Source: Candidatus Wolfebacteria bacterium | Lineage (GTDB): Bacteria; Patescibacteriota; Minisyncoccia; UBA6257; UBA9933 | Direction: 5' to 3' | DNA length: 60,790 nt | NCBI GenBank assembly: GCA_016188075.1 | Contig: JACPIO010000014.1 | Coordinates: forward strand, 1 to 60,790 | In this document: positions 15,394 through 35,036 of the stretch, in pieces | Numbering within the stretch: the stretch's first letter is position 1 | How the letters are laid out: each line of letters begins with the position of its first letter | The notes under the pieces: model-generated | Told to the model about the DNA's origin: nothing | The model's database searches: none | What the model saw: the letters and a program-made list of their open reading frames with translations, nothing else | Translations under genes and position numbers: made by a program

Positions 15394-16323
15394 TCAGTTT
15401 TTGAGAAAATTTTTTGCCAGATTAAGCGCTTGATTGTCGTTTCTGATCCACTTAATTTCTTTGTCTTTTTTAAACCAAGTTATCTGCCGTTTGGCGTAAC
15501 GCCAGGTATTGCGTTTTATTAAAGTGATTGCCTCGTTGAGGGAAATTTTGTCTTCAAGATAGTTTATGATTTCGCGGTAGCCGATGGCGTCGAAGGCCGG
15601 CAGATCAGGCGAGTATTTTTTAATGAGATTTTTTACTTCGTCTACGAGTCCGTTTTTTACCATTTGATCAGCGCGTTTATCAATGCGATATTTCAAAATT
15701 TCTTTTTGGGAATTCAGGCCGATTTTTAGGGCGTTAAATAATTGGGGGCCGCGGCGGCGTTGTTTAGAAAAAGGAATTTCGCTTTGGAGAGTGATTTCCA
15801 ATGCCCGAATTACTCGCCGCGGATTATTTCGGTCAATGATATACGCGGCTTCGGGATCGAGCTTAATCAATTTTTCGTAAAGATATTTGAGGCCTTTCTT
15901 TCGGAGTTCTCGCTCTAGTTTTTGGCGGAGTTTTGGATTGGGTTTGACCTTGGGGATTTCTAAATTATCCACCACGGCTTTGATGTATAAGCCAGTGCCG
16001 CCGACAAGAATCGGGATTTTGCCATTTTTTAAAATTTTTCTGATGGCGGCAACGGCGTCTTTTTTGTATTGAGCCACGGTATATTCTTCATTGGGGTTTT
16101 TAATATCAATTAAATAATGCTTAACTTTTTTCATTTCTGCCTTCGTCGGTTTGGCAGTGCCAATGTTGAAGCCGCGGTAAATTTGCCGCGAGTCAGCGGA
16201 AATAATTTCGCCATTAAATTTTCGAGCTACTTTAATTGATAGGGCGGTTTTGCCGGAAGCAGTAGGCCCGACAATAACGATGATTTTTGGTAGGGCGCGA
16301 AGCGTTGATAACTTTTTTGACAT
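15394..16323 (-). CDS. miaA: tRNA dimethylallyltransferase
   Basis: GPTASGKT P-loop, SADSRQIYRG, VGGTGLY. Confidence 0.95.
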   Translation of the reverse strand: MSKKLSTLRALPKIIVIVGPTASGKTALSIKVARKFNGEIISADSRQIYRGFNIGTAKPTKAEMKKVKHYLIDIKNPNEEYTVAQYKKDAVAAIRKILKNGKIPILVGGTGLYIKAVVDNLEIPKVKPNPKLRQKLERELRKKGLKYLYEKLIKLDPEAAYIIDRNNPRRVIRALEITLQSEIPFSKQRRRGPQLFNALKIGLNSQKEILKYRIDKRADQMVKNGLVDEVKNLIKKYSPDLPAFDAIGYREIINYLEDKISLNEAITLIKRNTWRYAKRQITWFKKDKEIKWIRNDNQALNLAKNFLKN

Positions 16324-16856
16324 AGGTTGCGTTTCTATTCTATACTAAAAGTATTCGAGATTGTACTTTGTTGTTTTGATAAAAAAAGGGTGGCGGAGCG
16401 CGTCGCGTTCCGCTTGTGACTGAACATGACTTGCTCTCGGGAGGAGGTGATCTTTATGAGAGGGTTCTACGCGGCGACGACGGGCACGGGGTCCGCGGCG
16501 TGATACGGTAACCTTCAAGGCCCAGAGCCGAGAAAGGAGGTGCCGCTATGGGAGTCGGATTCCGACTCCTCCTGCGGGATTGCGATCTGGAGCGATGAAG
16601 ACGGGGGATGTGGTTTCTATCTCGGCCTAAAGCTGGGAAGTGCTCCGTTTGGGCGCCTGATGAAACCCGGCCTTGCCGCGGTCCAGGTCCCTGTAGGAGC
16701 CGGAGGGAGCCGACTTTCCCTACCACCAAGACGAGGTAACCCCGGTCGGATACGCCTTCGTGGCGGGAAGTCCGGTCGGGACTGGACAGGGTTGGCGTTC
16801 CGGACCCTTCCGCGGGGCGGCAGGCTTCCCCAGCCGCCCAAAAAGGAGGATGTCCA

Positions 16857-16988
16857 ATGAGCACGCGCGGTTCTCCGATGTTCAGCGACGACGCTCAATC
16901 CGGGATCGCGACGTTCATGGCGTTCACCGACACGCGTCCCCCCGACATCCTGGGGACGGCGGCTTCGACGGTCACCCGGAAGACCTGA
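16857..16988 (+). CDS. Possible 43-aa peptide inside island A
   Basis: AAGGAGG sits 7 nt before the ATG, and third codon positions are almost all G/C (MSTRGSPMFSDDAQSGIATFMAFTDTRPPDILGTAASTVTRKT). Confidence 0.25.
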   Translation: MSTRGSPMFSDDAQSGIATFMAFTDTRPPDILGTAASTVTRKT

Positions 16989-17087
16989 GCCATCGAACGG
17001 GGGCATAGCTCACCCCCAACCATGGGAACGGTGCGGCGGAGCACTTCAAGGCCAGCGGGCCAAAGGGTGCTTCGCCGCACCCACACC

Positions 17088-17164
17088 TGAGGGCGGGGAT
17101 TTGAACCCCGTTCGTACAGCGGGGATTCAATTCCCCGGCAGTGGGTCCAGCCCCGCCCTCACCA
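17088..17164. ncRNA. tRNA-shaped element at the edge of island A
   Basis: A 7-bp closing stem (TGAGGGC/GCCCTCA) encloses three hairpins. The minus strand reads a canonical T-arm CGGGGTTCAAATCCCCG; the plus strand ends in ACCA. The anticodon-like loop is 6 or 8 nt, so this is not a standard tRNA. Confidence 0.35.
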
Positions 17165-17347
17165 AAATTTTTTGCACCTTAAAATAATTCAGCACCTTTA
17201 GCCTTTACGGGCTTCGCGGCCGCTCTCTCTTAAGTGGGCGGCTGATTTGTTTCCGGAAATTTTTCCTTTCCCGAATTTATTAACAAATTTTACGATCGTA
17301 AAAAATGTTAACAAAAGTTAGAAGACACAAATAAGCACAAATAAGAG

Positions 17348-18571
17348 TTAAATCACTTTGTCTTTAATTTCCTTTTGGATTTTTTTAAGGAGGTCGGCGA
17401 GTTTCGTTTCGCCCATTTGACCCTGGCGGTAGTGGCGAACATTTACCGAGTTATTCGCAATTTCTTTGTCGCCGACGACCAAAATATAAGGAATTTTCTG
17501 GAGTTCGGCTTCGCGGATTTTTTTGTTGATGGTTTCGTTTTCGTTATTCACTCGGGCGCGGATACCCTTTTTAATAAATTTTTTCGCAACTTGCTCGGCG
17601 TATTTGACGTGTTTATCGGTGATGCTTAAAATTTCCACCTGAACCGGAGAAAGCCAAAGCGGAAGTTTTCCTTCGGCGTGCTCGAGAAGAATGCCGATGA
17701 AGCGCTCAAAAGTTCCTAAAATCGCGCGGTGAATCATCACGGGGCGCTGTTTCAATCCTTTTTCGTCAATGTATTCGAGCTCGAAACGTTCGGGCATTTG
17801 GAAATCCAATTGAATCGTGGCAATGGTCCATTCGCGATTTTGCGAATCAGTGACATTAATATCAATTTTCGGCCCGTAGAAAGCGCCGTCTTTTTCTTTA
17901 ATTTGATATTTCATCTTCGCTTTTTTCAAAACATTTTCCAGATTTTTTTCGGCTTTTTTCCAAAGTTTGGGATCGCCCATTGCTTTGTCCGGTCGAGTAG
18001 CCAAATTAAAAGAGAGCGGCATATTAAAGTTGTCGTAAAATTCTTTGACTAATTTCAGGAGTTTTTTTATTTCGGATTCGATCTGATCGGGCCGGCAGTA
18101 AATATGAGCGTCGTCTTGGGAAAACTGCCGCACCCTTAAGAGCCCGCCCAATACTCCGGAAAGTTCGTTTCGGTGCAGGCGGTCCGTGATTTCGGAAAGC
18201 CGAATGGGCAAGTCTCTATAAGATCTAATTTTGGAAGAATAAATCAAAGTGCTTTCCGGGCAATTCATTGGTTTCAAAGCGTAAGTTTCGTTGTCCACTT
18301 CAAGAGTGAATATATTTTCTTTGAAATGCTCCCAGTGGCCGGATTTTTCAAAGAGCGTTTTTTTGACCATTACCGGAGTCGAGACTTCGGCGTAGCCCTC
18401 CTTGTCTAATTTTTCCCGCAGATATTTTTCGAGCTCCCGCCAAATAATCATTCCTTTACCGTGCCAAAAAGCCGCGCCCGGAGCGTATTCGTGGAAAGAA
18501 AAAAGGTCGAAGTCCCGGCCCAAGTCGCGGTGGTCTTTGCGGTTATTATTTTGTTCTTGCTCTTGTTCCAT
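17348..18571 (-). CDS. thrS: Threonyl-tRNA synthetase, catalytic plus anticodon-binding domains only
   Basis: Starts at the RDHRDLGRDFDLF region that opens the class II core. 407 aa; no TGS or editing domains. Confidence 0.9.
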   Translation of the reverse strand: MEQEQEQNNNRKDHRDLGRDFDLFSFHEYAPGAAFWHGKGMIIWRELEKYLREKLDKEGYAEVSTPVMVKKTLFEKSGHWEHFKENIFTLEVDNETYALKPMNCPESTLIYSSKIRSYRDLPIRLSEITDRLHRNELSGVLGGLLRVRQFSQDDAHIYCRPDQIESEIKKLLKLVKEFYDNFNMPLSFNLATRPDKAMGDPKLWKKAEKNLENVLKKAKMKYQIKEKDGAFYGPKIDINVTDSQNREWTIATIQLDFQMPERFELEYIDEKGLKQRPVMIHRAILGTFERFIGILLEHAEGKLPLWLSPVQVEILSITDKHVKYAEQVAKKFIKKGIRARVNNENETINKKIREAELQKIPYILVVGDKEIANNSVNVRHYRQGQMGETKLADLLKKIQKEIKDKVI

Positions 18572-18576
18572 GTTTT

Positions 18577-21500
18577 TTACAGCGTTATCGCCTGATCGCA
18601 GATAAATTTCGGTTCGTCGTCGCGATAGGACAACTTGCCGGCCATTAAAATCACATTATTTTCCCGCCAAACCGAGGGATTTTTGGAAAGGGTGTCGGCA
18701 AAGACGATGGCTTCCACTCTCCCGCTTGAATCTTCCACTTCGACGAAGAGCACTGGCTGGCCGGATTTGCCCACAATGCGCTTGATTTTGGAGATGATGC
18801 CGCCGATTCGAAATCCGTTTCCGTTCCCGCCGTTTCTTTTAAAAGTCGCGAGCTCTTTGATGGGTTTGGCGTTCGCGCCCTTTAATTTTTCTTGATATTC
18901 GTCAAGCGGATTGCCCGAAAGGTAAAGTCCCAAAAGCTCTTTTTCCCACGCCAGTCTTTCTTTGAATTTATCTTTGCCTCCAGCTGCCGGAGCCACAGGG
19001 CTTTTTAGGAATGACGGAACAGCGTAGCTTTGGCCGAATAAATTTCCTTGCGAGCTTTGAAGTCCGCCTCCCTTTTCCTTTTTAATAGTTTGACTGAAAC
19101 TAAGAATTTCTTCAATATGCCCCAAGAGTTGGTTGCGGTCGATTTTTAATGAATCAAAAACGCCGGCCTTGATCAAACTCTCGAGCGACTTTTTATTCAA
19201 ATCTTTGTGGTAAACGCGATTCAAGAAATCAACGAAATTGTTGAACGGGCCGCCTTTTTGCCGCTCTTCGATAATCGCGTCAACAATATTCTTGCCGACG
19301 TTTTTAATGGCTAAAAGTCCGAACCGAATTGCGTTTCCTTCCGGCACGAAATCCACAAAACTTTGATTGATGTCCGGCGGCAGAATATTTATTCCGGATC
19401 GTTTGGATTCGGAGACAAGAAAGGCGATGCGTTCGATGTCGCCGGAATCGGAATTGAGTAAACTCGTCATAAATTCAATGGGCCAGTGGGATTTAAGATA
19501 AGCGGTACGGTAGCCGATTAAAGCGTATGAGGCGGCGTGGGAGCGGTTAAACCCGTAGCGGGCGAAAGGCGGGAAAAGTTCCCAGACAGCCCTCGCGGTT
19601 TTTTCGTCAATGCCGTTCTCGCGCATTCCCTTAAGCAGTTTTTCCTTTTGGGCGTCAAGTAAAACTTTTATTTTTTTGCCAATGGCTTTGCGGAGAGTGT
19701 CGGCTTCAGCCAAGGTGTAGCCGGCCAAATCTCGGGCAATCCGCATCATCTGTTCCTGATAAACGCCGATGCCGTAAGTGTTTTTCAAGATGGGTTCCAG
19801 TTTCGGATGAATATAACTTACTTTCTCTTTTCCGAATTTGCGATTAATAAAAGAGGGAATAAGTTCCATCGGCCCGGGCCGATAAAGGGACACCATGGCG
19901 ATAATATCTTCAAGTTCGGTGGGTTTTAATTCTTTTAAATAATGACGCATCCCCGATGATTCCAACTGAAAAATTCCGGTGGTCTCCCCGGTCTGGAGAA
20001 GTTCAAAAGTTTTTTTATCATCCAACGGAAGTTTTGACATCTCTATGTTTTCTCCGGTAATGCCGTAAACCAGCCGAACCGTTTCTTCGATGATGGTTAA
20101 ATTTTTTAGTCCCAAAAGATCGATTTTTAAAAGTCCCAAATCTTCAATGGAGTGCATCTCGAATTGGGTAATGACGATATTCGGATCCTGGGGCGAGAGT
20201 TGGAGCGGAACGTAATTCACGAGAGGTTCCTTGCTCAAAACCACTCCGCAGGCGTGAACCGAAGCGTGCCGGGCCACGCCTTCAAGTTTCATCGCCGAGT
20301 CAATCAGGCGTTTGGCCTCCGGATCAGTTTCGTAAATTTGTTTTAATTCCGCGACTCGCTCCAGACACTTTACGAGCCAGCCGCTTTTCATGCCTTGAGT
20401 CGGGTTAAAGGGAATCAGCTTGGCAATTTTGTCGCAAAAGCCGTAGCTCATTCCCAAAGCCCGGCCGGCATCGCGAATCGCGGCTCGGGCCGCCATTGTT
20501 CCGAAGGTGATAATCTGCGCCACCCGCTCCTCGCCGTATTTTTGCCGGACATAAGCAAAAACTTCGTCGCGCCGAATATCGGTAAAATCAATGTCAATGT
20601 CCGGCATGGAAATCCGATCCGGATTTAAAAATCTTTCGAAGAGCAAGTCGTATTTTAAGGGATCAACATCGGTGATGCCTAAAACATAAGAAATTAAACT
20701 GCCGGCAGCCGAACCTCGACCCGGTCCAACCACGATGCCGCGTTCTTTGGCCCAGTTCACGAAATCCTGAACAATTAAAAAGTAATCGGCAAAACCGGTT
20801 TTTTCGATGACGCCGAGTTCGTAATCCAGCCGTTCTTTCACTTTTTCGTCGTGAGCCGGAAAGCGGCTCGATAATTTAGACTCCGTAATTTTTCGAAGAT
20901 AATCGGAAGCGGAAGTTTCGCCCGGCGGCAGGGGAAAATTCGGCAAAAGAGTCTGATTAAGCTTGAGGGTGACATTGCAGCGATCGGCAATTTTAATGGT
21001 GTTTTCGATGGCTTCCGGAGTTTCCTTAAAAGACTCGATCATTTTTTCTTGGGAGGTCATTGAAAAATCATCAGCGCGAAGCGTTAAGCGATCTTCTTCA
21101 CTTAGGCGATTGCCGGTCTGAATGGCGAGAAAGATATCGTGGTATTCCGCGTCTTCGGTTTTTAAATAATGAATGTCTTGGGTGGCAACGAGCGGCAGGT
21201 TGTGTTTTCGGGCGAGTTCAATCACTCCTTTCCCGGCCACGAGGGTTTCTTCGATATTCGGGTGATGCCAAACTTCCATAAAAAAATTGTCTCGTCCGAA
21301 AATTTCAAGGTATCCTTGAAGCGCTTGCTCGGCCTCCTCGTTTTTTTTGTGAAGCAAGAGCCGGGGAATTTCTCCGGAGAGACACCCGGATAAGGCGATC
21401 AGTCCTTCGTGGTACTTCTGAAGAAGTTCTTTGTCGATTCTCGGCCGATAATAAAAACCCTCGAGATGCGCTTTGGTTGTGAGTTCGATTAAATTTTTCC

Positions 21501-22210: not shown

Positions 22211-22374
22211 GTTATCGAAGATCGAAAGTTCTTTGTTCCAGCGCAGATTTCCGCGGATCGCAACGCGGATCGGCGCAGATGTAGTAGAGAACTTTTGCTC
22301 TTTGACAGTTGTTGTTTGACTGCGGTAGTTGGCGGTGAACCGGAAGGGATCCGATGGGATCCGGAGGGGGTGCC

Positions 22375-22749
22375 ATGGCAGAGTTGACCATAGCTGAGCC
22401 TAAAAAATGCGTTAATCCGGAGTATCGAGGGTTTAGCGTACGATATTACGATTCGCCGTTAGAGTGTTGTACCTGGATCATCGGGGTCAAGTATGGCCAC
22501 GAGCCGCCCCTTGGGATCGTGGTGTGTCCGGTCGGTGCTCACGTACTTGAAGATGGTTCTGGGGTTGGTCGGGTTGTCTTCGCGTGTTGCACCCTTGAAA
22601 CGCTTGCTTCGGAGGTTGCCCGGCAAACCGCGAACCTGGAGCCGGGTTTTTTCTTGCGGGAACTGGATCCACGGGATCCTTCTCGCAACCTCTGGGGTGA
22701 GATTCTTGCTCTGTACGACAGGAGGGGAGACAATGCTGTCACGGCTTGA
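22375..22749 (+). CDS. Cys-rich hypothetical protein in GC-rich island B
   Basis: GGAGGGGG lies 4 nt upstream of the ATG at 22375. About 125 aa with seven Cys in six positions (KKC, ECC, VVC, ACC). Confidence 0.45.
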   Translation: MAELTIAEPKKCVNPEYRGFSVRYYDSPLECCTWIIGVKYGHEPPLGIVVCPVGAHVLEDGSGVGRVVFACCTLETLASEVARQTANLEPGFFLRELDPRDPSRNLWGEILALYDRRGDNAVTA

Positions 22750-22942
22750 TATCGATCTGGGAGTTCTCGAGGGTACACCGGATGGAGCAATTATGCAGGA
22801 GATTGATGAGAATCTTCATCGCCTTCGTCAAGTGCGCGACACAACGACCTGTTTTATTTTGAAACAGGTTGTGAGGAGGGCAATTGTTGTATATCGAAAG
22901 CGTCGCGCATGCATCATCAAGCGGATTCTGAATCTCGAATAG
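22734..22942 (+). CDS. 69-aa hypothetical protein in island B
   Basis: AGGAGGGGAGACA precedes the ATG. The start overlaps the stop of the previous ORF by 16 nt. Confidence 0.4.
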
Positions 22943-23400
22943 AGAGGAGGTGATCGCGGGTGGTAGATGTATCTCGAGAGGAGTTCGGGCAATAGGCAGT
23001 AAGGATATTACTCGGCCCCTTGGATCCGCACAAGCATCAACCGGATCCAGGGCGTGTCAGGCGGGTGCTTGATCGTGATTCTTTGCCGACCGCTCTGGAG
23101 CAACCCGGAGTGTCGGTAACGCCCCGTTTTTCCGAGGAGCCGGTCGAGGGGCAGCAAGTCGTTGTTTCGCCCTTGCCGGCGGGAGCTCTCAAGCCGCAGT
23201 CATAAACCAAGCCGATCCTTCGGGGTCGGTCAGTGCCCGCGCGTGGGTCATCCCGAAAGCGCGGAGGATGCCGGCCAACACAAATCGCTGGCGTCCAACA
23301 AAGGGAGCCGATTCGCATCATCACAAGGAGTCGGCCCCGCATGGGGAGTGGTAGTCCAGAACATCTACCCCGGACTACCCTCCCCATCTTCACTTTTAAA
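22943..23400 (+). ncRNA. GC-rich structured 3' region of island B, ending in a long terminator hairpin
   Basis: GGATCCG..CGGATCC, CCGATCC-TTCG-GGGTCGG and CCGCGC..GCGCGG hairpins. GGGGAGtGGTAGTCC...GGACTACCcTCCCC is followed by a T-rich tail (23343-23400). Confidence 0.35.
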
Positions 23401-23512: not shown

Positions 23513-23632
23513 ATGGATCAACTCATCAATACTAAAACATTTTCCCTTAACTTTTTAACCGCTTTTGGTTTCTTTTTTGGTTTTTTCTACTTTGTTTATC
23601 CTGTAAAGGCCAGGAGGTTTATTATGAGTTAG
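23513..23632 (+). CDS. Small hydrophobic peptide (39 aa)
   Basis: TTGACA(23477)-16 nt-TATTCT promoter. MDQLINTKTFSLNFLTAFGFFFGFFYFVYPVKARRFIMS. Not in the track. Confidence 0.3.
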   Translation: MDQLINTKTFSLNFLTAFGFFFGFFYFVYPVKARRFIMS

Positions 23633-23679
23633 AATTTAGAATTTAGAAGTTAGATATTAGAAATTAAGATAACATAATC

Positions 23680-23708
23680 AAAAACCTCCTCGCCGCAGGA
23701 GGTTTTTG
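23680..23708 (+). terminator. Rho-independent terminator AAAAACCTCCT cgccgc AGGAGGTTTTT
   Basis: Stem plus T-run. Confidence 0.8.
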
Positions 23709-34598: not shown

Positions 34599-34808
34599 TT
34601 ATTGCCGGAGGCGCGTGGACTGGTTGAAGCGGGGATCGTGGCGAACGGTTCTTCCTTCTCCGTTATGTTCATCGCGGAGAAAGACGAATTCGAGACGTCG
34701 GCACCCCTCCTCTTTTTTATCATCAATGAAGTCGTGGAGGCGGGTTTCGTCGATGATTTCTTGGCCGCGTCCGTTATCCCTTCGCTTCCACCTGACTAGG
34801 ACCTGCAT
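34599..34808 (-). CDS. 69-aa hypothetical protein in GC-rich island D
   Basis: AGGAGGGG lies 4 nt upstream of the ATG. Second gene of a two-ORF unit. Confidence 0.4.
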   Translation of the reverse strand: MQVLVRWKRRDNGRGQEIIDETRLHDFIDDKKEEGCRRLEFVFLRDEHNGEGRTVRHDPRFNQSTRLRQ

Positions 34809-34826: not shown

Positions 34827-35036
34827 TTAATGGGTCCGCGCCGAGCGGACCCGGTGCAAAACGCCGACCGGTAGTTGTAGTACCACTACCGGTATTACTT
34901 CGTTGGGAGTAATCCAAAGAAGGTTTTTACAGCCGGGGCATTTTTCGTTGCGTCCCCTTGGTACTAAATCGATCCGGCGCAACCTCGTTAGATTGCGCGG
35001 CAACTTCGTTTGACAAAGCGGACACTTGCTTTCCAT
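34827..35036 (-). CDS. 69-aa zinc-ribbon-like protein in island D
   Basis: CPLC...CPGC pairs. GGGAGGGTG upstream of the ATG. TTGACA(35107-35112, minus)-18 nt-TATTCT promoter. Confidence 0.4.
   Translation of the reverse strand: MESKCPLCQTKLPRNLTRLRRIDLVPRGRNEKCPGCKNLLWITPNEVIPVVVLQLPVGVLHRVRSARTH

Follow-up and report, generated by a model that had tools for sequence, protein, structure and literature searches.

A GC-rich island with Shine-Dalgarno-led mini-ORFs in the variable thrS-miaA slot of a Candidatus Wolfebacteria contig

In a stretch of 60,790 nucleotides from a Candidatus Wolfebacteria bacterium (the window), a GC-rich island lies between miaA and thrS at window positions 16385-17175. 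With slightly less than even chances, we favor the reading that this island is an autonomous plus-strand mini-ORF (open reading frame) transcript and a lineage-specific accessory occupant of a variable slot. It would form the body of a transcription unit running opposite to miaA and thrS. A promoter overlapping the miaA start is predicted to drive a GC-rich, highly folded RNA of ~820 nt, which would bear three canonical Shine-Dalgarno (SD)-led mini-ORFs of 15, 16 and 43 codons, ORF3 being the likely product. The initiation region of ORF3 is predicted to be locked by its own codons, and its translation would therefore be conditional. Stable 3′ stem-loops, ending with the complement of a tRNA-like cloverleaf, may stop or stabilize the RNA ahead of an antisense run into thrS. 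The plus strand is indicated by five independent signals, namely the promoter, the SD-ATG sites, the asymmetry of G:U pairs, the period-3 signal and the 3′ stem-loops. An earlier note on this DNA, made from the sequence alone, had taken the island for either a mini-ORF cassette or a large structured RNA. Of these, the mini-ORF part is borne out by the strand-specific SDs, the near-consensus promoter, the periodicity of ORF3 and the mini-ORFs of relatives, and the RNA is structured as claimed, but it belongs to no known RNA family that we could find. Three features had escaped that note: the plus-strand promoter, the minus-strand cloverleaf at the island's right edge, and how sparingly the host uses SDs. 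Coordinates are collected in Table 1.

The island departs sharply in composition from its surroundings. Its GC content is 63.6% (0.636), as compared with 43.2% (0.432) elsewhere in the window, where GC nowhere stays above 0.6. The shift spans ~50 nt at either edge, in agreement with the abrupt switch from AT-rich to GC-rich sequence described before. Its placement between miaA and thrS likewise holds, since one flank matches the IPPT family and the other encodes a class II aminoacyl-tRNA synthetase with an HGTP anticodon domain, which is consistent with thrS. An abrupt GC break at both edges could also mark an assembly chimera or a contaminant insert, which had been named as a possible refutation. 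Two independently assembled Logan contigs, however, span the island and both junctions (SRR12113424, 4326 bp, window 15448-19773; SRR12113430, 3594 bp, window 16180-19773) in the order dnaE-thrS-island(-miaA), and a third such contig is recorded. Because these assemblies, each from a single run, agree with the window at 100% identity through both junctions, the island is not an assembly chimera. In addition, synteny resumes on both flanks and gaps of like size occur in relatives, so that the chance of a chimera or contaminant is practically negligible.

The plus strand carries the signals of a small transcription unit. The -35 box of the promoter overlaps the miaA start codon (16321-16323, minus strand), and transcription is predicted to start near 16353. 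Downstream, three initiation regions follow each other. The first contains GGAGGUGAUC, 10 nt complementary to the canonical 16S tail, and the second AGAAAGGAGGUG, 12 nt complementary to it; the complementarity of SD3 extends over 8 nt. The ATG stands 8, 7 and 7 nt past the GGAGG core of SD1, SD2 and SD3, respectively. The arrangement GGAGG-N5-10-ATG is found three times on the plus strand and never on the minus strand (P(≥3) = 0.0008, dinucleotide-preserving shuffles), ~30 times the density seen elsewhere in the window. These results confirm the three strong plus-strand SD sites reported before short ORFs of 15, 16 and 43 aa. ORF1 has 15 codons (MRGFYAATTGTGSAA), a TGA stop and a GC content at third codon positions (GC3) of 0.88. 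ORF2 has 16 codons (MGVGFRLLLRDCDLER), the first of which make a perfect hairpin, GGAGTCGGATTCCGACTCC, at 16551-16569. ORF3 has 43 codons (MSTRGSPMFSDDAQSGIATFMAFTDTRPPDILGTAASTVTRKT), and its third positions are mostly G or C, as had been observed: the GC contents of its first, second and third codon positions (GC1/GC2/GC3) are 0.48, 0.64 and 0.84, with period-3 at p = 0.0015. It appears to be the most credible coding frame of the island. Coding-type period-3 is limited to ORF3 and to 16385-16600, where it lies in the frame of ORF1 (p = 0.0025) and runs across two in-frame TGA stops.

No credible long protein is encoded in the island, as claimed before. The long ORFs, of 136 and 129 aa on the minus strand and of 106 and 82 aa on the plus, are flat in GC1, GC2 and GC3 and have neither codon periodicity nor homologues. 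The statement that all six frames are open was an overstatement, with 3-10 stops found in each frame. One long gene with TGA read-through or frameshifts was also considered, and was rejected because the periodicity is discontinuous and the 106-aa frame is flat.

Table 1. Features of the island, of other parts of the window and of the thrS-miaA slot in related loci
Feature	Position	Strand	Basis or details
miaA	15394-16323	minus	Pfam IPPT, E=8e-89
Promoter, sigma-70 type, TTGACA-18 nt-TATACT	16317-16346	plus	11/12 consensus matches
GC-rich island, without sequence relatives	16385-17175		composition, searches, independent assemblies
5′ hairpin GCGGAGCGC-GUC-GCGUUCCGC	16393-16413	plus	G:U pair on plus becomes A:C on minus
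Initiation region 1 and ORF1	16439-16503	plus	SD GGGAGGAGGTGATC at 16439-16452; ATG 16456
Initiation region 2 and ORF2	16531-16598	plus	SD string AAAGGAGGTG at 16533-16542; ATG 16548
GC-rich structured spacer, 244 nt, with RNase-P-like strings	16599-16842	plus	period-3 p=0.15; local minimum-free-energy hairpins; no Rfam match
Initiation region 3 and ORF3	16843-16988	plus	AAGGAGG at 16843-16849; ATG 16857
17-bp stem with inner GGCC-AGCG-GGCC hairpin	17030-17082	plus	G:U on plus only, A:C on minus
tRNA-like cloverleaf, sub-threshold	17086-17162	minus	ARAGORN at 95% and 90% of default threshold, not at default
ACCA-AAA-UUUUUU tail after terminal stem	17161-17175	plus	sequence
Class II aminoacyl-tRNA synthetase, 407 aa, HGTP anticodon domain	17348-18571	minus	domain search
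Second GC-rich orphan island, GC 0.54-0.62	22330-23395	plus	many GGATCC-stem hairpins
SD-led ORF of second island, 124 aa (P0001)	22375-22749	plus	
SD-led ORF of second island, 69 aa (P0005)	22733-22942	plus	
Third cassette	~35110-34420	minus	TTGACA-18-TATTCT promoter, two 69-aa SD-led ORFs, terminator
Relatives' mini-ORF units	L002:3008-3807; L003:5333-6000; L026:5026-5958; L100:895-1615	opposite to miaA/thrS	conserved SD-led ORFs
Unrelated SD-led units in slot	L007, L027, L040		
ORF-less small-RNA-like unit in slot	L090		
HicA toxin and probable HicB partner, two-gene module in slot	L010:5410-5985		HicA, Pfam E=1.3e-14

It is also evident that the island is unusually stable as an RNA, as predicted by folding, and the term "structured" was right. 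The folding z of the whole island is -3.7 on the plus strand and -3.3 on the minus strand, with 3′ hairpins at -4.3 to -5.0, which bears out the frequent stable hairpins noted before. Where the two strands can be compared, the plus strand folds better. At 16380-16470, the plus strand is predicted to fold at -30.5 kcal/mol (z -2.2) and the minus strand at -17.4 kcal/mol (z -1.4); at 16985-17090, z is -5.0 for the plus strand and -3.2 for the minus strand. The earlier suggestion of a minus-strand terminator at 16391-16415, consisting of GCGGAACGCGACGCGCTCCGC at 16393-16413 followed by T7, could not be sustained. In its stem, mismatched A:C takes the place of a plus-strand G:U pair, its T-run begins 5 nt past the stem, and the stem is absent from the minus-strand minimum-free-energy structure. 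The plus-strand 3′ 190 nt are predicted to form the 17-bp hairpin and an 11-bp stem closing a branched structure, followed by ACCA-A3-U6, a tail that is probably a non-canonical end of the plus-strand transcript. The small-RNA-like unit found in the slot of one related locus (L090) has a similar end, ...CCACCC-ACCA-UUUGUUUU. Folded at full length, the RNA is predicted to pair SD3 and AUG3 with codons 20-24 of ORF3 (P ~0.55-1.0, most pairs >0.9), and the A7 at the 5′ edge of the island with the U6 at its 3′ edge. A common mode of SD sequestration was not found in the window and relatives. We also observed an 11-nt perfect inverted repeat, GAAGTGCTCCG / CGGAGCACTTC, at 16637-16647 and 17037-17047, 389 nt apart, through which the 5′ arm of the 17-bp 3′ hairpin could pair elsewhere, and a 10-nt exact direct repeat, CTTCAAGGCC, at 16513-16522 and 17044-17053.

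Such stability raises the question of whether the island is rather an undescribed large non-coding structured RNA of ~0.8 kb, in which the SD-like motifs are structural or bind the 16S 3′ tail and are not translated. Both strands outfold their shuffles, single hairpins reach z of -4 to -5, and the GC content is 20 points over that of the genome, which is usual for structured RNAs of AT-rich genomes. The 244-nt spacer and the 3′ 190 nt have no coding signal, an ORF-less unit occupies the same slot in L090, and SDs of 10-12 nt are over-long for efficient SD function. In a variant of this explanation, a minus-strand RNA would extend from the cloverleaf, acting as an RNase P processing signal, to the hairpin and U7 at 16385-16413; a weak minus-strand promoter (9/12) lies at 17314-17287. 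However, the 5′ and 3′ elements are both weaker on the minus strand than on the plus strand, and the island matches no Rfam family even at E ≤ 10. An untranslated RNA also leaves three observations unaccounted for: the ATG 7-8 nt past all three SDs, expected by chance at ~5×10−4 (an estimate from 5 positions/64, cubed) and at P = 0.0008 in shuffles, the period-3 of ORF3, and the coding-type conservation in the mini-ORFs of relatives. We therefore hold the non-coding explanation, its minus-strand variant included, to be rather unlikely.

We then compared the island with known RNA families. A cmscan with all 4227 Rfam models at gathering score, a check that the earlier note had suggested, returned six tRNAs in other parts of the window and nothing besides, neither an rRNA nor any match in the island. 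At E ≤ 10, the 1.2 kb around the island yielded only chance matches of 12-20 bits to unrelated families, and no RNase P, transfer-messenger RNA (tmRNA), intron, GOLLD, ROOL, HEARO or OLE. Nothing relevant was found in related loci either (13 loci at gathering score; 6 loci and a second island of the window at E ≤ 10). ARAGORN at default found no tRNA or tmRNA in the island. The RNase P lead of the earlier note relied on CR-I-like strings, which exist (GGGAAAGTCGGCTCC on the minus strand at 16706-16720; GGGAAGTCCGG on the plus strand at 16765-16775), as do all the strings it quoted, each at its position; RNaseP_bact_a and RNaseP_bact_b match at neither gathering score nor E ≤ 10, and this candidate was rejected. 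The tmRNA lead fared no better. The acceptor-like stem at 17088-17161 is closed locally and not by two RNA ends, the plus-strand T-arm-like hairpin sits 13 nt from the acceptor strand, and relaxed ARAGORN yields merely permuted calls with nonsense tags. GOLLD, ROOL, OLE, HEARO, raiA and Intron_gpII were rejected as well, with no Rfam match in the island or in the slots of relatives. A divergent copy of a known RNA (RNase P RNA, tmRNA, tRNA, group II intron, GOLLD, ROOL, HEARO or OLE) that the models missed might leave the CR-I-like strings, an ACCA 3′ tail behind an acceptor-like stem and a tRNA-like cloverleaf. Given the silence of the Rfam models, the absence of default ARAGORN calls and a stem that closes locally, we consider such a copy very improbable. 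A fragment of the 16S 3′ end on the minus strand (h45-like AAGGUUACCGUA and GAUCACCUCC) was also tried and rejected, since its alignment to the 16S 3′ consensus is no better than that of shuffles; in local alignment, the sole part above shuffles is the anti-SD tail motif itself.

Searches for relatives of the DNA and of its peptides were similarly negative. Blastn of the island against 50,697 phage and 72,556 plasmid records gave no match, blastn and nhmmer found none in 160 related loci, and exact-pattern scans of viral contigs found none. Neither the 136-aa minus-strand ORF nor the 43-aa ORF3 has a word-sharing homologue among 5.8 billion proteins, and the profile libraries of Pfam, NCBIfam, PHROGs and PADLOC contain no match for the island peptides. 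Phmmer of ORF3 against 1.84 billion representatives returned two matches only, both to proteins with tandem internal repeats. These were rejected as repeat or composition artefacts because their E-values sum five weak stretches of ~10 bits each. No close strain was found: the 90% cluster of thrS has 1 member, and MiaA is at best ~70% identical in 185,579 species genomes and JGI metagenomes.

The cloverleaf on the minus strand deserves separate consideration. Its acceptor stem of 7 bp has G.G as first pair, and a D arm follows. The anticodon stem has 5 bp and its loop, at 6 nt, is one base short; the variable region measures 10 nt, and the T arm (CGGGG-UUCAAAU-CCCCG) is perfect. Its complement is the terminal branched stem of the plus strand at 17088-17161, with a fold z of -4.3 to -4.4. 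Relaxed ARAGORN made 5 extra calls in 1.28 Mb of related DNA, and since such sub-threshold calls occur only about once per 256 kb, the cloverleaf is unlikely to be due to chance. The tRNA-like Rfam family mascRNA-menRNA touches it on the minus strand (18.6 bits), and the Rfam tRNA model has no match on that strand. With 66% GC, as compared with 54-56% in host tRNAs, it belongs compositionally to the island. A tRNA gene was rejected in view of the short anticodon loop, the G.G first pair and a pass by ARAGORN at the 95% threshold only. The element is, as judged from its predicted fold, a tRNA mimic or pseudogene and not a tRNA. An att-type direct repeat of its 3′ part was not found at the far edge, by eye or by repeat search.

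The SD sites of the island stand out against the habits of the host. An SD-like motif precedes only 2-4 of 49 host genes, and relatives are likewise poor in SDs. Many core genes, in the whole window and in L002, L003, L026, L027, L040 and L007, show a -10-like box shortly ahead of the ATG, which suggests leaderless or SD-independent initiation in this Parcubacteria clade, in agreement with a previous report (PMC9297842). Because host genes and relatives scarcely have SDs, the SD sites of the island are not background, and three SDs of 8-12 nt within 0.8 kb are un-hostlike. Extended SDs in a genome whose other genes mostly lack them are also what distinguishes rpsU in SD-"blind" Flavobacteriia, where a sub-population of ribosomes whose anti-SD tail is freed translates this one strong-SD gene (PMC9976891, PMC7797042, PMC13000453). 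If the host 16S ends in ...CACCUCCUUUCU-3′, the SDs of the island would be usable.

These un-hostlike properties could instead be explained if the island is an inert, decaying fragment of high GC, horizontally acquired, perhaps from a host bacterium or mobile element with strong SDs, and carrying a tRNA pseudogene and remnants of small genes. The GC content of 64% as compared with 43%, the GC3 of ORF3, which is foreign to the host codon usage (GC3 0.44-0.52), the SD-led initiation and the 66%-GC tRNA-like element with its defective anticodon loop all fit such an origin. The period-3 of 16385-16600 crosses stops as in a broken gene, the island is absent from all 160 of the 160 related loci, and the thrS-miaA slot is a hot spot. 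Decay is, however, difficult to reconcile with three initiation regions that are all intact and optimally spaced, and a host-type promoter in the AT-rich flank points at the island. No donor was found in the phage and plasmid collections or viral contigs. The units in the slots of relatives are also GC-enriched, which argues for a property of such units rather than a single recent import. A decaying import is unlikely in our judgment, though far from negligible.

We then sought to place the island among the contents of the same slot in related Parcubacteria. The thrS-miaA synteny is conserved across the clade, with a gap from 0 to ~1 kb whose contents vary. Because its occupants differ among lineages, including mini-ORF units, a small-RNA-like unit and a HicA module, the slot is a variable accessory site. 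Mini-ORF units are found in four lineages (L002, L003, L026 and L100; L085 and L088 are equivalent to L003, and L089 to L026). They have consensus TTGACA/TATAAT promoters, SDs of 9-13 nt, proper start spacing and terminators. All four contain a conserved 10-codon ORF, MPxxxWPxPF (MPPLYWPLPF / MPLASWPMPF), with synonymous differences, and an ORF of 29-52 codons with an invariant RGQP motif (GAGGACAGCC), the variable positions of which are synonymous only. This second ORF ends in A-(W/I/F)-A in all but one of the four lineages, and its GC content is 9-25 points above that of its own genome. Between L002 and L003, indels keep the reading frame, and a hairpin of the units shows a compensatory change from GAGGU/ACCUC to GAAGU/ACUUC. 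The units have no Rfam match, and no description of them was found in a limited literature search. The island shares with them the slot, the strand, a promoter of its own and long SDs before mini-ORFs. In pattern scans, the MPxxxWPxPF ORF and the RGQP motif were found in L002, L003, L085, L088, L026, L089 and L100 only, and not in the window, where the nearest resemblance to ..TRGQP.. is STRGSP in ORF3, which starts MSTRGSP.

Two side observations concern thrS itself. ORF3 contains 8 Thr among its 43 residues (19%, p = 0.003 given base composition) and ORF1 3 of 15, and both adjoin the convergent thrS; Thr enrichment is not common to most mini-ORFs of relatives. The ThrRS-like protein comprises only a catalytic core and an anticodon domain. 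The ORF at the same position has 573-626 aa in L001-L003, L026, L027 and L040, and the short form is also found in some relatives (L008-L010, L015).

Several observations weigh against the autonomous mini-ORF transcript that we favor. The best-formed single element, the cloverleaf, is on the opposite strand, and the 3′ end of the plus strand is not canonical, with no call there by the terminator scan. ORF2 has no coding bias, and a gene caller applied to the Logan contigs called nothing in the thrS-miaA gap. The island and its peptides have no homologue in the searched collections, and the link to the cassettes of relatives is positional and architectural only, with no nucleotide similarity and just RGSP as compared with RGQP. 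Finally, the anti-SD motif has been detected in just 48% of Parcubacteria, and a subgroup of them is without it (PMC9297842). If the host were a member of that subgroup, the SDs of the island could not function as such.

A more far-reaching possibility is that the thrS-miaA slot houses fast-evolving GC-rich RNAs whose mini-ORFs, led by "super-SDs" of 9-13 nt, engage an otherwise idle 16S 3′ tail in a clade without ordinary SD initiation, the island being the most elaborate member. We regard this as a long shot. If it were so, the RNAs could conceivably act as a sensor or regulator of ribosome state, by analogy with rpsU in Flavobacteriia. It is also conceivable that the island is a translation-coupled switch, in which the Thr-rich ORF3 and alternative 3′ helices would set antisense read-through into the convergent thrS.

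The island is not the only orphan cassette in the window. Two more GC-enriched, SD-led small-ORF cassettes have perfect -35 (TTGACA) boxes, and no relation of the GC-rich islands of the window to one another was found. The second island has no homologue but itself and matches no Pfam, PHROGs or PADLOC family, and six Logan contigs are 100% identical to it. It also contains an 11-codon ORF behind GAGAGGAGGTGATC at 22945. Downstream, at 23602-23633 (plus), AGGAGG is followed by a two-codon ORF (ATG AGT TAG) just before an AT-rich repeat and a terminator at 23680-23708. The ORFs of the third cassette (34827-35036, with a zinc-ribbon-like CPLC...CPGC, and 34599-34808, both on the minus strand) have no family match. 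Twin GC hairpins with CUUG loops lie near 35340-35240, upstream of this cassette.

If the island is expressed, canonical SD-led initiation would persist for special tiny genes in a lineage of the candidate phyla radiation whose core genes ignore SDs. This would bear on start-site choice in reduced cells and provide a concrete locus for asking whether the anti-SD tail is free, hidden or absent. The window contains three orphan SD-led cassettes within 60 kb, and thrS-miaA is a recombination or accessory slot in the clade; such cassettes may be micropeptide or selfish modules, in organisms about whose accessory biology very little has been learned. Should the island prove an inert foreign relic instead, there would be nothing out of the ordinary in it.

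The island can be compared with several known systems. Large ornate non-coding RNAs such as GOLLD and ROOL often adjoin tRNAs. The island resembles GOLLD, ROOL, OLE, HEARO, raiA, RNase P RNA and tmRNA in size class, in its GC excess over the genome and in its many stable helices, but differs from them in matching none of their covariance models at either threshold used and in having functional-looking initiation regions. In leader-peptide attenuators (thrL, pheL/pheM), alternative hairpins and a U-run come after short SD-led ORFs. The island likewise has short SD-led ORFs, hairpins and a U-run, and the Thr-rich ORF3 stands beside thrS. No gene on the same strand lies downstream, however; thrS is convergent, and what comes next on the plus strand is its antisense. 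The gene order thus excludes attenuation of a downstream gene. The mRNAs of type I toxin-antitoxin systems (hok/sok, aapA/isoA) are small, strongly structured and stable, with a sequestered initiation region, a hydrophobic toxin and an antisense RNA. The structured RNA, the predicted sequestration of SD3, the predicted pairing of the A7 and U6 ends and a slot that holds HicA in L010 recall these systems, whereas the peptides of ORF1-3 have neither a hydrophobic segment nor homology. Their highest 15-residue Kyte-Doolittle values are 0.13-0.47, which lends no support to a classical type I toxin. As for an antisense RNA gene, the weak minus-strand promoter at 17314-17287 was the sole sign of one.

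The mini-ORF units of relatives, at ~0.45 kb, are smaller than the 0.8-kb island, which is far GC-richer and has a different ORF order. They share with it the slot, the strand, the promoter type, multiple long SDs, a GC excess and stable hairpins. As for rpsU of Flavobacteriia, that gene encodes bS21, whereas the frames of the island encode orphans of 15-43 aa that match no family, but in both cases the ordinary genes lack SDs and very few frames have an extended SD. If it is an orphan accessory small-ORF cassette in a variable slot, the island is of a familiar kind. What is unusual is its combination of super-SD mini-ORFs in an SD-poor host of the candidate phyla radiation, a GC excess of 20 points and a tRNA-like terminus.

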